Shown: one piece after another, positions 1 through 51,170 of the stretch | Layout: every line of letters starts with the position of its first letter | How positions within the stretch are numbered: position 1 is the stretch's first letter | Assembly: GCA_016186645.1 (NCBI GenBank) | Contig: JACPLF010000007.1 | Coordinates: 192,651-244,278 of the forward strand | DNA from: Candidatus Levyibacteriota bacterium | GTDB taxonomy: Bacteria > Patescibacteriota > Microgenomatia > Levybacterales > UBA12049 | Reading direction: 5' to 3' | DNA: 51,628 bases | Translations under genes and position numbers: made by a program | The notes under the pieces: model-generated | Told to the model about the DNA's origin: nothing | Database searches by the model: none | The model's input: the letters and a program-made list of their open reading frames with translations, nothing else

Positions 1-794
1 TCCAAATTGTGCCTGCCCAAAAGTTTTATTTTTTTAGTATCAATAATTTTTTCTTTCTTACCATCGCTGCTTATCCAAACACAATCTTTGCCGACAAAAC
101 ATCCATTGACTACTTCTCTTTCGCGGCTAACTTGAAAAACTTTTCCCAATGTATGAATACCTGATTCATGGCTTGCCGGATAGTCTTTATTTATGATTGC
201 GAAATCTTGAGGAGTTTGAAATCTCAAAATATTTCTTTTTGCATTAACGTAATCTTCTAACGTCTTGTGATAATCCAAATGCTCCTGGGTTATCATCAGG
301 ATAACTGCAATATGGGGCCCACCCGCCGGCGAGGCAAAAGATTTTTTCAAATCATTAAGCTGGTATGATGACATTTCCAGAACAGTCCAAGAATGATCGT
401 TTAGCTTGTTTATAAAGTCCAAAGGTGATTGACCAATATTCCCTCCCAGATAAACATCTAGACCTTGAGCCTCTAACATTTCATAAATAAGCCTTGAGGT
501 AGTACTTTTTCCTTTTGTACCCGTAACTCCAATTACTTTTCCTTTTGCATTAGATAAAAAAATATTTGTTGCAGTTGTGTATGGAATTGCAATAAGTTCT
601 GGTTTTACTCCCGGAGATTTTACAGCAATATCATAATCTTTTTGTCTGTCTAAATAATTTTCCCCATCTTTTCTATCAACAGTGTCAATCACAGGGTTTG
701 GCAAATGTTTTTTAAGATACTTAAGCGTGGCATTTCCCTCGATTCCTTTCCCAACAATTAATATTTTTTTGTTTTTTAATTCTCCAAGTTTCAT
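1..794 (-). CDS. murD: UDP-MurNAc-L-Ala:glutamate ligase (MurD family, probably MurD2 type); 3' end runs off the window
   Basis: Manual translation from ATG at 794: MKLGELKNKKILIVGKGIEG...KSPGV...VIGVTGTKGKSTT (P-loop)...GGNIG...VLEMSSYQL...EHLDYH...LLGRHNLE. ATGA overlap with the stop of the upstream gene (791-794). Confidence 0.9.
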   Translation of the reverse strand, partial: MKLGELKNKKILIVGKGIEGNATLKYLKKHLPNPVIDTVDRKDGENYLDRQKDYDIAVKSPGVKPELIAIPYTTATNIFLSNAKGKVIGVTGTKGKSTTSRLIYEMLEAQGLDVYLGGNIGQSPLDFINKLNDHSWTVLEMSSYQLNDLKKSFASPAGGPHIAVILMITQEHLDYHKTLEDYVNAKRNILRFQTPQDFAIINKDYPASHESGIHTLGKVFQVSREREVVNGCFVGKDCVWISSDGKKEKIIDTKKIKLLGRHNL

Positions 795-2041
795 ATTGCT
801 TTATAAGAGCTGATGAGTTTAGTATTATTAAACTCCCCTCTTTTAATAATTTCCGATAATGCTTCTTTTACTTCTTCAGGCGTACCAACGCATTCAAATG
901 GCTTAAAATTTCTAACTCCTATTAATTCTTCAAAAAGAGGAAGTAAGCTTATTTCATCCAAAAGATTTTTTCCAAAAATAGCCAAAATCTTTTCTTTTGG
1001 CAAAAAAGCTGCAAGAGATATAAAAACAAAAAGACACTTTGCGCACTCCCCGCACCACTTACCCGACACCTTCGAGGAGTCCATTCGGCCACCTCGAAGG
1101 TGGGTCTTGTTTATCTTAAAATTGCTATTACATGATGAAAAAACTTTAAAATACTTTGGGTATTTTGCAAATTCTTTTGCAACTTCCAATTCATTCATGT
1201 TACGAAGGGGTGAAGAATAGGAAATATCCGGTGTTACAAACTTTTTAACATATTCTCTAAAAAGGTTTTCAAACTCCTCAGACTTGCTCCATTGGTGATT
1301 AATAGTTTGTCCTAAATATTCTACGTTCCCATAGTTTGCACTTTTCTCGTTCCCAACAGTAAAAGATTTATAATCATAAAGTGCTGCAGTCATCAAACCT
1401 AAAAAAGCATAAATAGCAGATATTGGAATGTGTCCATTATAAGTTTCTTTTTCTTTATTAAAATCAAACAGTTTAGGATCTAGCTCCCTTTTGATAACAA
1501 TTGGTTTTTTGCCAATAGCAAGAGCTACTTCCTCTTGAGTTTTCGATGTTCCAACTGTAAAAAGGTCAAAATCCTTGTTTTGTGCTTTCAAAATCTCTGC
1601 TGTTACAATAGAATCTTTTCCTCCGCCAAGACCCAAAAGAGCACGGGCTTTTCGAGGATATGAAATTGGATCTTGAGAATTTTTTATAAACGGAAATTGT
1701 ATTAAACCTCTAAAGTCAATCTTGTTTTTGTAGAAAAACTCTCCTAATCCCTTCGTATAGACAACATTCCAAAATTTAGCCTGCTGCCTGCTTAAAAAAT
1801 TATTTTCGATAATAATTTTCCGGGGACAATGCAACTTCCAATACGAAATTCCCAAAATAAGCATTAGATTATTAAAAATTGATTCAAGCAGAACCTCAGG
1901 AACTTTATTCACAACCCGCGGAAAAGAGATTTTCTCCGTAAAATCTATATTTCCCCCACTTCTAAAACCAAAGCGAAAAAGAACCTCGCCTTTTTCAAGG
2001 TTTGATTCATAACCATTAAATACAAATGATGGGCTTTTCAT
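791..2041 (-). CDS. murL: UDP-MurNAc-L-Ala-L-Glu epimerase (MurL family)
   Basis: PP-loop-like LGLGGGKDS plus YNGHIPISA, VGNEKSAN, NHQWSKS, FSSCN, WCGECAKC and KPFECVG, which I recognise as the MurL motif set; translationally coupled to murD. Confidence 0.75.
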   Translation of the reverse strand: MKSPSFVFNGYESNLEKGEVLFRFGFRSGGNIDFTEKISFPRVVNKVPEVLLESIFNNLMLILGISYWKLHCPRKIIIENNFLSRQQAKFWNVVYTKGLGEFFYKNKIDFRGLIQFPFIKNSQDPISYPRKARALLGLGGGKDSIVTAEILKAQNKDFDLFTVGTSKTQEEVALAIGKKPIVIKRELDPKLFDFNKEKETYNGHIPISAIYAFLGLMTAALYDYKSFTVGNEKSANYGNVEYLGQTINHQWSKSEEFENLFREYVKKFVTPDISYSSPLRNMNELEVAKEFAKYPKYFKVFSSCNSNFKINKTHLRGGRMDSSKVSGKWCGECAKCLFVFISLAAFLPKEKILAIFGKNLLDEISLLPLFEELIGVRNFKPFECVGTPEEVKEALSEIIKRGEFNNTKLISSYKAI

Positions 2042-2086
2042 GGGTATATTATATTCGATAAGAGGGGTTTTTACTAATTGAAAATA

Positions 2087-2275
2087 TTATTCTATCGCAT
2101 AGCTACCGAGGCGTCTAAGATGATCTTCTCCATAACGCTCCTCTCTCATTTTTCTAAGTATGCTCGTGCTATCTTCTCCTTTAGCAAGTTCCACACCATA
2201 CTTTTCTCTAAATGCAAGAATATCTTCTACTACTTTTTCTATTTTTGATTTGGGTCTTTTGAATATAATTTTCAT
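2087..2275 (-). CDS. Small hypothetical protein, possibly an orphan antitoxin-like protein
   Basis: 62-aa ATG ORF filling the gap between tRNA-Met and murL. The C-terminal DSTSILRKMREER resembles VapB-type antitoxin tails; no toxin is adjacent. Confidence 0.4.
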   Translation of the reverse strand: MKIIFKRPKSKIEKVVEDILAFREKYGVELAKGEDSTSILRKMREERYGEDHLRRLGSYAIE

Positions 2276-2300
2276 AAAAAATACTACACAATTCTTTTTG

Positions 2301-2372
2301 TACCAACGACAGGATTCGAACCTGTGATCGATCGCTTATGAAACGATTGCTCTACCGCTGAGCTACGTTGGC
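2301..2372 (-). tRNA. tRNA with CAT anticodon (elongator Met most likely)
   Basis: Cloverleaf: acceptor GCCAACG/CGTTGGT, D-arm GCTC..GAGC, anticodon stem ATCGT/GCGAT with loop TTCATAA, T-loop TTCGAAT, discriminator A. No encoded CCA. Confidence 0.9.
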
Positions 2373-2382
2373 GCGCCTCACT

Positions 2383-2421
2383 ATTCTAGCAGTTGATTTA
2401 AAAGAGGTCAAACATTATAAT
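2383..2421. promoter_or_regulatory. Overlapping divergent sigma70 promoters for the two CAT tRNAs
   Basis: + strand: TTGATT(2393-2398)-17 bp-TATAAT(2416-2421). - strand: TTGACC(2411-2406)-17 bp-TAGAAT(2388-2383). Confidence 0.65.
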
Positions 2422-2430
2422 ATTTAGACG

Positions 2431-2499
2431 CGCGGGGTAGTGTACAGTGCACGTGAGGCTCATAATCTCACAGGTCGGGCGCAACTCCCGACCCCGCAA
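2431..2499 (+). tRNA. Atypical initiator-like tRNA-fMet (CAT), 69 nt
   Basis: 5' CGCGGGG and 3' CCCCGCA-A with the C1:A72 mismatch typical of initiators; anticodon loop CTCATAA. The D-loop is only 5 nt (ACAGT) and the T-loop is CGCAACT. Confidence 0.75.
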
Positions 2500-2506
2500 C
2501 ACAGAA

Positions 2507-50331: not shown

Positions 50332-50333
50332 TT

Positions 50334-50750
50334 TTAGATAAGATTTTTAGCTTCTCTCCAAACTTTTTGGTCTGATTTATATGTTAATCTTTCTTCAACT
50401 TTTTCTTTTGGCAGCCATTCTACGGCTTCCATTTCTTTATCGTGTTTTCCAATATCCCCTCCGACATACTCCATTAAAAAATAATACACAGTTTTTTTAA
50501 TCAATTCTCCTTCCAACTTAAACCAATAAGTAACAGGCGTTAAAGCTTTTGTTATTTTCCCAATTACTCCTGTTTCTTCTTCAACTTCTCTCATTGCTGT
50601 CTCTTCTTTATTTTCTCCTTCAACATGATCTCCGATCAGTCCTTTCGGAAATACCCAGCTATGATGCTGAGAATGCTGAGAGACAAGAATAAGAATTTTG
50701 CTGTTTTCTTTTTTGTAAACTATACCTCCTGCTGAAAATTGAAATTTCAT
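50334..50750 (-). CDS. NUDIX hydrolase
   Basis: SAGGIV, WVFPKG, ETAMREVEEETG (Nudix box), YFLM. Confidence 0.88.
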   Translation of the reverse strand: MKFQFSAGGIVYKKENSKILILVSQHSQHHSWVFPKGLIGDHVEGENKEETAMREVEEETGVIGKITKALTPVTYWFKLEGELIKKTVYYFLMEYVGGDIGKHDKEMEAVEWLPKEKVEERLTYKSDQKVWREAKNLI

Positions 50751-50768
50751 AAGTTTATTTATTCTTTG

Positions 50769-50841
50769 TGTCTCTGGGAGGGGTCGAACCTCCAGCCTTT
50801 GAGTTCGGAACCCAATGCTCTATCCGTTAAGCTACAGAGAC
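50769..50841 (-). tRNA. tRNA-Arg(CCG)
   Basis: Acceptor GTCTCTG/CAGAGAC; anticodon stem TTGGG/CTCAA with loop TTCCGAA. Confidence 0.93.
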
Positions 50842-50868
50842 CTTTCGCTTTCGCTCTTGCGGACTGCG

Positions 50869-50904
50869 TCCGCCGAAGTCGAGCTTCAGCGAGACGAAGG
50901 CGGA
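50869..50904. repeat. REP-like palindrome overlapping the tRNA-Ser(CGA) 3' end
   Basis: tccgcc-gaagtcgagcttcagcgagacgaa-ggcgga; one arm comprises the last tRNA bases. Confidence 0.65.
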
Positions 50905-50987
50905 GGCGAGAGGATTTGAACCTCTGTGAGTCTTGCGACCCGCTCGGTTTTCGAGACCGGCCAAATAAACCACTCTTGCACGCCTCC
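50901..50987 (-). tRNA. tRNA-Ser(CGA)
   Basis: Acceptor GGAGGCG/CGCCTCC, anticodon loop CTCGAAA, long variable arm, T-loop TTCAAAT, discriminator G. Confidence 0.92.
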
Positions 50988-51017
50988 TTTCAGATCCGGC
51001 ACGTAAAAGTCTTATTG

Positions 51018-51090
51018 TGTCCTCGGGGAGATTCGAACTCCCAATCGTTGGGTTCGCAACCCAATGCTCTATCCATTAAGCTACAAGGAC
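51018..51090 (-). tRNA. tRNA-Arg(GCG)
   Basis: Acceptor GTCCTTG/CGAGGAC; anticodon stem TTGGG/CCCAA with loop TTGCGAA. Confidence 0.93.
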
Positions 51091-51095
51091 TTAAC

Positions 51096-51170
51096 GTGCC
51101 AGGCAATCTGAATGCCCCCTGCCCGCCATAGCCTTTGGCGTCGGCGGGTATCCAATTAAGCTACAGGCAC
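51096..51170 (-). pseudogene. tRNA-Arg-like relic with the anticodon arm replaced by a palindromic element
   Basis: The 5' 22 nt GTGCCTGTAGCTTAATTGGATA resemble the neighbouring Arg tRNAs, followed by CCCGCC..GGCGGG, a T-arm-like GGCA-TTCAGAT-TGCC and a short acceptor end GGCAC. Confidence 0.6.

Follow-up and report, generated by a model that had tools for sequence, protein, structure and literature searches.

Locus and genes

We analysed a stretch of 51,628 nucleotides (nt) of DNA from a Candidatus Levyibacteriota bacterium, referred to below as the window, which carries short GC-rich palindromes lying in frame within conserved genes as well as between genes; these are probably selfish elements resembling repetitive extragenic palindromic (REP) sequences, of several families, that colonise Levybacteria genomes, which is the explanation that we find best. 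RuvB similarity and synteny indicated an origin from Candidatus Levybacteria (Microgenomates, Candidate Phyla Radiation, CPR). The GC content of the 51.6-kb window is 36.7%, and its genic share is about 90%. It holds murD, murL, xerC/D, a gene for the coupling ATPase of a type IV secretion system (T4SS), comM, genes for a GT-C-like membrane protein and a P-type ATPase, ruvABC, purD, rplY, leuS, a DUF4012 protein gene, yidC, dnaA, dnaN, T4SS-like pilin genes, a VirB6-like gene, nadE and nadD, together with seven tRNA genes and several toxin-antitoxin genes. The nearest public genome locus is that of Levybacteria RIFCSPHIGHO2_01_FULL_40_16 (L003), whose RuvB is 90% identical and which is syntenic with positions 2.4-25.8 kb of the window at 72-80% nucleotide identity.

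Loci used for comparison were labelled with L-numbers (L083, L084, L086, L087 and L090-L092 being loci of Levybacteria relatives), and orthologues were aligned for MurL (n = 120), the GT-C-like protein (n = 50) and the VirB6-like protein (n = 50). For a population check, Logan contigs and unitigs from four groundwater runs were compared with the window; the setting is that of groundwater Levybacteria, and the matching runs are DNA metagenomes only. An earlier note on this DNA had listed GC-rich palindromes inside nine genes and between genes, and had read them as several REP families that are actively adding peptide loops to essential proteins. Every sequence so listed was found in its place, the intragenic ones in frame and within intact open reading frames (ORFs); the features are collected in Table 1. 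The core shared by murD and the GT-C-like gene, GCCGGCGAGGC, occurs twice in the window (325 and 10454), the rplY sequence is identical to intergenic 22326-22344 at 17 of 19 positions, and TGAGCGNAGCCGAA is found at 15701 (+) and 45511 (-), each against 0.00 expected in 100 shuffles.

Table 1. Palindromic and inserted sequences of the window, with their positions
Position	Strand	Feature	Family or context
318..338	.	murD insert, 21 nt in frame (FASPAGG)	core CCCGCCGGCGAGGC; CCYGCC...GGCRGG palindrome family
1067..1102	.	murL hairpin, 36 nt, 11-bp stem, encodes HLRGGRMDSSKV	CACCTYCGAGGTG family
		predicted MurL peptide spanning the insert junction	KTHLRGGRMDSSK
8682..8732	+	comM, TGTC/CGTC-type REP unit (AGTC-ATCCT-GAG...TCGA-AGGAT-CCCA)	nested 21-nt palindrome 8694-8714
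10448..10468	.	GT-C-like membrane protein insert, 21 nt in frame (PPAGEAG)	CCGCCTGCCGGCGAGGCAGGT
11781..11828	+	P-type ATPase insert, ~13-16 amino acids in frame	absent from the earlier list
13943..13958	.	ruvB C-terminal tail, 16-nt perfect palindrome	TGCGCCAGCTGGCGCA
15701..15714	+	intergenic hairpin, conserved loop TGAGCGTAGCCGAA, stem ATAC/GTAT	second copy at 45511-45524, minus strand
19396..19414	+	rplY tail copy (PSTGSG)	CCCTTCCACAGGCTCAGGG; match to 22326-22344
20869..20952	-	LeuRS insert, ~21-28 amino acids in frame	EIRSGKSEPKPSELRTPISDN; absent from the earlier list
22304..22344	.	intergenic hairpin pair; second = TGACCC-TTCGACAAGCTCA-GGGTCA	TGAGC-N4-CGAA loop type on minus strand
27657..27668	.	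DUF4012 protein, 12-nt palindrome (PPAGA)	CGCCGGCCGGCG; hypervariable linker
28443..28461	.	intergenic GC-rich hairpin, -25.6 kcal/mol with flanks	tied to no family
43131..43205	.	nadD, tail-to-tail dimer of CGTC-type REP units, 75 nt	tag-and-stem scan
45511..45524	-	intergenic hairpin, loop TGAGCGGAGCCGAA, stem CAGT/ACTG	copy of 15701-15714
49844..49876	.	VirB6-like insert, 8 amino acids in frame (GLPDEALAKS)	TTCGCCAAGGCTTCG family
50865..50900	.	hairpin adjoining 3' end of tRNA-Ser	family uncertain; core TCCGCCGAAGTCGAG like the L289 nested insert
51119..51146	.	hairpin CCCGCC...GGCGGG upstream of tRNA-Arg	tied to no family

Filled and empty sites in orthologous genes

Orthologue alignments bore out in-frame, lineage-specific insertion, as the earlier note had claimed it, at six of the nine intragenic sites (murD, murL, comM, GT-C, nadD and VirB6-like). 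Empty and filled sites could be set side by side at the DNA level for murL, murD, comM and GT-C, and at the protein level, over 50-120 orthologues, for murL, VirB6-like and GT-C. Some orthologues thus have the elements and others do not; where present, they code for additional loop peptides in conserved proteins, in support of the claim of added loops. All inserts are multiples of three and have no stops.

The murD insert is missing in MurD of L083, L084 and L086, and at the identical codon boundary L087 MurD carries a 39-nt palindrome, PARHASLQGVAGG. PDB homologues of MurD are 5-6 residues shorter at this site, and the insert was reproduced in four independent Logan assemblies. Regarding MurL, about 100 of the 120 Levybacteria orthologues have no insert in the loop, and the rest bear assorted inserts (LRGGRMD..., LHLGGVVKRHLRGDRMGSS, TSTTLSTSSL, SPRTRRFRAPL and more). 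At the DNA level, L084 represents the empty site, L083 has the 36-nt hairpin of the window, L086 has a different element at that loop, and in L087 the element has three arms and 60 nt, its stem showing compensatory changes from T:A to C:G. In an AlphaFold model of MurL, with a mean predicted local distance difference test score (pLDDT) of 90, the sole segment below 50 comprises residues 312-326, which are the insert; the model places it in a disordered loop, shown for MurL only. N-terminal extensions reading MVEHSIHNAAVVGSIPTP in MurL orthologues P0015, P0023, P0053 and others were rejected as inserts, being gene calls that run through an upstream tRNA gene and hence an annotation artefact.

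The peptide PPAGEAG is missing in 46 of the 50 GT-C orthologues and is a clean 7-residue insertion in the window. The empty site was found at the DNA level in L291, and in L289 the palindrome is itself interrupted, precisely at its centre, by another 24 nt. A tblastn comparison with the single orthologue of L006 had given no change of length; this was misleading and was overruled by the 50-orthologue alignment. The gene itself (9026-10705) is missing from the syntenic L003, where comM adjoins the P-type ATPase gene, and is present in L006. In the VirB6-like protein, about 40 of 50 orthologues read GFLPS--------PQT, i.e. without the insert, and the window and eight others carry K(A/T)GLPD(E/G)ALAKS. 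A neighbour-joining tree of these orthologues was tried for counting gains and was discarded as star-like and unreliable.

Two sites hold sequences that fit tagged REP units. Deletion of 8694-8714 from comM restores a canonical unit, GTCATCCTGAGC-CCGT-CGAAGGATC (pattern GTCATCCTGAGC-N4-CGAAGGATC), indicating a 21-nt palindrome nested within a REP unit at this site; the window is 7-9 amino acids longer here than L003, L007 and L009. In nadD, unit 1 (CGTC-ATTCTGG-CTTGT-CCAGAAT-CTCCA) starts at 43131 and unit 2 is inverted; PDB homologues of NadD are without about 24 residues at the element, and in the closest relatives the place of its GC-rich codons is taken by an AT-rich loop that is unrelated and 9 amino acids shorter. 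The nadD dimer came from a scan for tag and stem, which had 24 hits in 308 kb of Levybacteria DNA where Markov controls had about 8.5; about 9 clear units occur in this DNA. Both elements fit the published CGTC/TGTC architecture with small deviations in tags, stems and loops (see below). As a separate observation, comM is split by a TGA (8244-8246) into two ORFs of the same frame (7476-8246 and 8250-9029); L003, L007, L009 and L087 have GGA in its place, encoding the Gly of a conserved IYSISGLL motif. For this TGA we consider three readings, a nonsense mutation (pseudogene), an error of assembly and readthrough; TGA is a genuine stop for seven other genes of the window.

As an unbiased set we took every in-frame insert of at least 4 amino acids that window genes have relative to their Levybacteria orthologues, or the orthologues relative to them (n = 58). 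GC content was 0.55 or higher in 26% of these lineage-specific inserts versus 4% of random coding segments, and many inserts of intermediate GC content proved to be recognisable repeat units, for instance TGTCATCCTGAACTAATTTCAGGATCT inside leucyl-tRNA synthetase (LeuRS) of L004. The P-type ATPase insert of the window (GC 0.52, minimum free energy (MFE) -0.34 kcal/mol per nt) is missing in four Levybacteria orthologues, and the LeuRS insert in five.

At the remaining three of the nine sites insertion was not demonstrable. The case of ruvB is weak: its tail is a variable linker only 3-4 amino acids longer than in relatives; a related palindrome, CGCCAGCTGGCG, stands at a non-orthologous site in L003, and 13943-13958 is probably an element. 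The tail of rplY is of low complexity (Ala/Glu/Pro/Lys) and its alignment is ambiguous; 19396-19414 is possibly an element copy. The DUF4012 site is hypervariable, its closest representative reading NPSAGG.

Recurrence of palindrome families across genes and genomes

The presence of several distinct families of palindromic repeats was borne out. Their sequences are met with again in genes that have nothing in common and in more than one genome, with element DNA in both orientations in different genes. At the level of sequence, at least four REP-like families can be distinguished, namely the tagged units, CCYGCC...GGCRGG, CACCTYCGAGGTG and the TTCGCCAAGGCTTCG type. The second is represented in the window by the murD and GT-C elements. 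A perfect 20-mer, CCTGCCTGCCGGCAGGCAGG (the LPAGRQ palindrome), or near copies of it occur in MurL (L083, L086), in ComM (two sites, L007), in GT-C (L289) and three times in one Buchananbacteria locus, and a longer relative (PAR[HN]AS..VAGG) occurs in MurD of L087 and RuvC of L003. Copies of the CACCTYCGAGGTG family lie in MurL (window, L083, L087) and in NadE (L091), CACCTCCGAGGTG being common to MurL and NadE; those of the TTCGCCAAGGCTTCG type lie in the VirB6-like gene (window) and in NadE (L090, L092). Different families by lineage occupy one and the same loop in MurL (after residues 312-323), NadE (after 128-133) and GT-C (after 475).

Within the window we assign to the tagged units, as members or relatives, the dimer in nadD, the unit in comM and three intergenic hairpins, at 15701 (upstream of the true RuvA start), 22326 and 45511. 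Their apex is TGAGC-N4-5-CGAA or fully paired, and is kept while the stems vary and covary (ATCCTGAAC, ATGCCGAAC, ATTCCGAAC, ATGCTGAAT, ATTCTGG and ATTCCCGC); the loop of the second hairpin of 22304-22344 recurs in L007 with different stems (CATAG/CTATG). For the hairpin at 28443-28461, no relative was found among the compared sequences.

The same sequences were searched for in IMG/VR, where chance expectation for 20-21 specified bases is well under one by our own estimate, the size of the collection not being exactly stated. The 20-nt palindrome was present in 35 stretches, on contigs of GC 0.38-0.68 and with up to six copies per contig, and GTCATCCTGAGC-N4-CGAAGGATC in 86 stretches with 100 copies; in 93% of these copies GTC is preceded by T or C. 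Shorter queries (a 15-mer and a 16-mer) were discarded, as their counts were close to what chance would give in a database of this size. In one IMG/VR contig (L192, 2239-2330), ARAGORN calls a 92-nt tRNA-Met whose long variable arm is CCTGCCTGCCGGCAGGCAGG. The palindrome also follows a tRNA D-arm sequence in L199 and has a similar anticodon-arm context in L169, and ARAGORN calls no tRNA in either.

The compensatory changes that keep stems paired, the conserved apex with variable stems and the toleration of the 20-nt palindrome as the long variable arm of a tRNA-Met gene would be expected of hairpins selected for a function at the DNA or RNA level (mRNA stability, ribosome pausing, byp-like translational bypass or protein-binding sites), with the peptides as a by-product. 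We regard this as very unlikely, because the elements are sporadic among orthologues, most of which have no insert at any given site, because different families are interchangeable at one loop, and because no position is conserved across the clade; intrastrand repair of palindromes can also yield compensatory change.

Weighing of selfish elements against chance and local copying

Several results weigh against the reading of these palindromes as REP-like selfish elements and are gathered here. In composition, the window has 14 GC spikes of 14 nt versus 11-15 in Markov shuffles, and 67 GC islands of 18 nt versus 64 expected (Markov-1/3/5 simulations overall). A census of exact 10-mers in 198 kb gave low copy numbers, unlike the high-copy REPs of Pseudomonas. 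Since the AT-rich nadD loop of relatives is only 9 amino acids shorter, the 75-nt element replaced sequence rather than simply being added, i.e. insertion plus loss and not a clean insertion. No presence/absence polymorphism within populations was seen in the four groundwater Logan assemblies: the inserts are there, and no insert-free variant is. When 50 ORFs of the window were scanned with Pfam, no Y1_Tnp/HUH, IS200/IS605 or GIY-YIG protein turned up, so that the gene for a REP-associated tyrosine transposase (RAYT)/HUH or GIY-YIG enzyme which the earlier note had suggested looking for was not found in the window; the only recombinase there is an XerC/D-like integrase (2842-3765). Turnover of one ancient insert could explain the shared loops as well as repeated insertion does. 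Finally, some expansions (murL of L087, GT-C of L289 and comM) look like local template switching.

The counts of GC spikes bear on the possibility of chance, in which Pro/Ala/Gly-rich linker codons (CCN GCN GGN), being self-complementary, give GC-rich palindromes by composition. Set against shuffled sequence, as the earlier note had asked, the spikes were at Markov expectation, and hairpin-forming GC islands were the only enriched class of GC islands (21 versus 11.8 +- 3.3 expected). In addition, 23 windows of 50 nt had MFE <= -18 versus 1-8 expected, a count for which tRNAs partly account. Because spikes and islands are not enriched, composition alone is unable to carry the claim, and its support is the comparison with orthologues. 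A list of exact-stem hairpins was dropped as evidence, since it consisted mostly of trivial 8-mers. The strongest hairpin of the window (43852-43913, -27.7 kcal/mol), which lies in the gene of a small pilin-like membrane protein (43596-43979) and is without an Rfam match, was likewise rejected as an element: it encodes a GVPTGG motif conserved in relatives and is no insertion, and the "GC-rich hairpin" criterion gave a false positive here. This plain coding motif and the low-complexity or hypervariable segments around the rplY and DUF4012 sites are what chance would give. Nevertheless, we consider chance extremely unlikely as the general explanation, in view of the pairwise matches with an expectation of 0.00, the filled and empty sites in close orthologues, the GC-rich codons of nadD where relatives have AT-rich ones, and the occurrence of element DNA in both orientations in different genes; orthologue alignments refute it for six sites, and it may account for rplY, DUF4012 and ruvB.

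The expansions bear on a local mutational origin, in which template switching or hairpin-primed repair (quasi-palindrome mutagenesis) acts in permissive loops and nothing moves. The nested 21 nt of comM look like the right arm and tail beside them, copied in inverted orientation, the three arms of L087 MurL share a middle arm, and the L289 insertion contains a tandem GGCGAGGC duplication at the palindrome centre. Part of the palindrome growth is probably local, as these three cases suggest. As the origin of the palindromes, we judge local mutation unlikely, since local copying cannot produce identical or near-identical sequences of 14-39 nt in unrelated genes and genomes, such sequences being found also in IMG/VR contigs of 38-68% GC, and since the empty sites of murL, murD and GT-C contain no precursor sequence. 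That it is the sole cause is further opposed by the recurrence of families at non-homologous sites, already largely seen. Defined palindromes appear at sites that are empty in close relatives, with no target duplication visible.

Age of the inserts and a possible mechanism

The murL and GT-C inserts are common to relatives of about 75% amino-acid identity and are hence old, so the word "actively" in the earlier note could not be maintained. As a separate observation, Logan unitigs break at 1073-1102, 8396-8425, 8740-8770 and 10442-10473, the first and the last of these being the palindromes of murL and GT-C, and several otherwise unrelated Logan contigs share only about 30 nt at 10442-10473. 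These extra matches may come from orthologous genes of related strains, and were not used as evidence for extra copies.

If the palindromes are selfish elements of the REP-like kind, they would insert more or less broadly, and because about 90% of the genome is genic most copies would land in genes. Purifying selection would then keep the harmless copies, namely those with a length that is a multiple of three, with a frame free of stops and cysteines, and in a permissive loop; selection may thus act as a filter on the copies that persist. Consistent with such a filter, the LPAGRQ-type palindrome is read in its one cysteine-free frame in each of the 10 copies that the fetched orthologues contain, which lie at five or more distinct sites. 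The inserts would be translated as short disordered peptides rich in Pro, Ala, Gly, Arg and Ser. Once in place, the palindromes may lengthen or decay, through local duplication (inverted or tandem) and through further insertions nested at the hairpin apex.

Mobilisation could occur in trans, through a single-stranded hairpin intermediate and with an enzyme encoded outside the window, as in the REP/RAYT-type model, or by another route. Nested insertion at the palindrome centre (L289 and comM) and the copy in a tRNA loop suggest that extruded single-stranded apexes are preferred targets, a preference that would fit an HUH-type single-strand mechanism. A bolder reading, which we hold to be rather unlikely, is that tag-less perfect palindromes like CCTGCCTGCCGGCAGGCAGG constitute a pan-bacterial, phage-borne class of minimal hairpin elements of about 20 nt. 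Members of such a class would pass from phylum to phylum and integrate with no duplication of the target, by preference at single-stranded apexes of existing hairpins, which would account for the nested insertions and for the copy in a tRNA variable loop. Their route would be an enzyme or a repair pathway, and in the most gene-dense lineages (CPR) the process would rank among the main sources of new surface loops in core proteins.

Other features of the window

A 730-nt intergenic region upstream of dnaA and dnaN (33157-36551), with the minimum of cumulative GC skew nearby, is likely to be the replication origin. Genes of toxin-antitoxin type are dense in the window (13504-13908, 16155-16586, 22366-23033, 29195-29842 and 51200-51619), the types being DUF5615, PIN_3, PIN with a small upstream ORF, AbiEii and BrnT. 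A gene for a 23S rRNA intervening-sequence protein (44034-44405; a bAvd-like four-helix bundle) stands amid T4SS-like pilin genes, and no reverse transcriptase was seen near it. Two tRNAs, at 2431-2500 (Met) and 50899-50987 (Ser-cga), are ARAGORN calls below the Rfam gathering score for tRNA. Among the compared loci, L087 has at 19207-21263 an FtsH gene (AAA plus Peptidase_M41) with an intein that bears a LAGLIDADG domain.

Significance and comparison with known elements

Full-text searches of the literature on intragenic palindromes of CPR/Patescibacteria, and on the motifs themselves, found nothing specific. In-frame intragenic palindromes are of a known kind (Rickettsia palindromic elements, RPE, and intragenic REPs) and apparently undescribed for CPR, and the families outside the CGTC/TGTC type have no tag and no published name in the literature searched. 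The biology of intragenic REPs and RPE would thereby be extended to a very different lineage, gene-dense and AT-rich. If general for CPR, the elements would be a steady source of lineage-specific loops in MurD, MurL, NadD, NadE, LeuRS, RuvC and ComM and a natural map of permissive insertion sites in core proteins. They would also trouble annotation, alignment trimming and phylogenomics, as PACRQAG- and LPAGRQ-type peptides can resemble low-complexity regions or spurious ORFs. They sharpen the question how palindromes of the CGTC type, and those without a tag, can move with no transposase dedicated to them.

Classical REPs with a GTAG head, or bacterial interspersed mosaic elements, with RAYT are short hairpins, often in inverted pairs, thought to move single-stranded, and are overwhelmingly extragenic and of high copy number. 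The present elements are likewise short hairpin repeats, often in inverted pairs; they differ in that none has a GTAG/GTGG head, no RAYT is in the window and most copies are intragenic.

Of the RPE, RPE-1 is 100-150 bp long and specific to Rickettsia, and the peptides encoded by RPE lie in loops apparently compatible with protein function. RPE were reportedly described by Ogata et al. in 2000 as selfish palindromes in frame in conserved protein genes. The likeness, selfish in-frame palindromes with loop peptides in a small AT-rich genome, is a functional analogy only: the elements here measure 20-75 nt, occur in Levybacteria, are unrelated in sequence except for the CGTC type, and share loops among several families.

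Mitochondrial GC clusters (such as that of yeast var1), the double-hairpin elements of Allomyces and the byp elements of Magnusiomyces are GC-rich mobile palindromes. Mitochondrial GC clusters have been reviewed (PMC8811140). All three kinds share with our elements the occurrence of GC-rich palindromes in very AT-rich genomes, sometimes within coding sequence. On the other hand, they are organellar and unrelated in sequence, and byp is skipped by the ribosome, which needs neither multiples of three nor stop-free inserts.

CGTC/TGTC-tagged REPs, which include dRS3 of Neisseria and RPE-4 and RPE-6 of Rickettsia, were defined by a CGTC tag (with TGTC and CCTC variants), a stem of 8-9 bp starting A-T, a loop of 4-5 nt and a CCA-like tail; the units often form inverted dimers, predominantly head-to-head, have no dedicated transposase, occur occasionally as intragenic in-frame copies in housekeeping genes, and were reported in five phyla, CPR not among them (Di Nocera et al. 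2013, PMC3733652). Regarding the tag, nadD unit 1 has CGTC and Levybacteria relatives have TGTC or CGTC (L010 carries CGTCATTCCCGCGCAGGCGGGAATCTAAT), whereas the comM unit and nadD unit 2 bear AGTC. The tails agree (CTCCA in nadD unit 1, CCCA in comM), and all stems start with AT, with 7 perfect bp in nadD unit 1 (ATTCTGG) instead of the published 8-9 bp, and 9 positions in comM (ATCCT + G.A/A.G + GC) when sheared G.A pairs are counted. The 5-nt loop of nadD unit 1 (CTTGT) fits the published range, whereas that of unit 2 (16 nt) and that of comM, with its 21-nt nested insert, fall outside it. The nadD dimer is tail-to-tail, in contrast to the predominant head-to-head arrangement, the copy number appears modest in the 308 kb scanned, and the host is a CPR bacterium, in addition to the five phyla reported so far.

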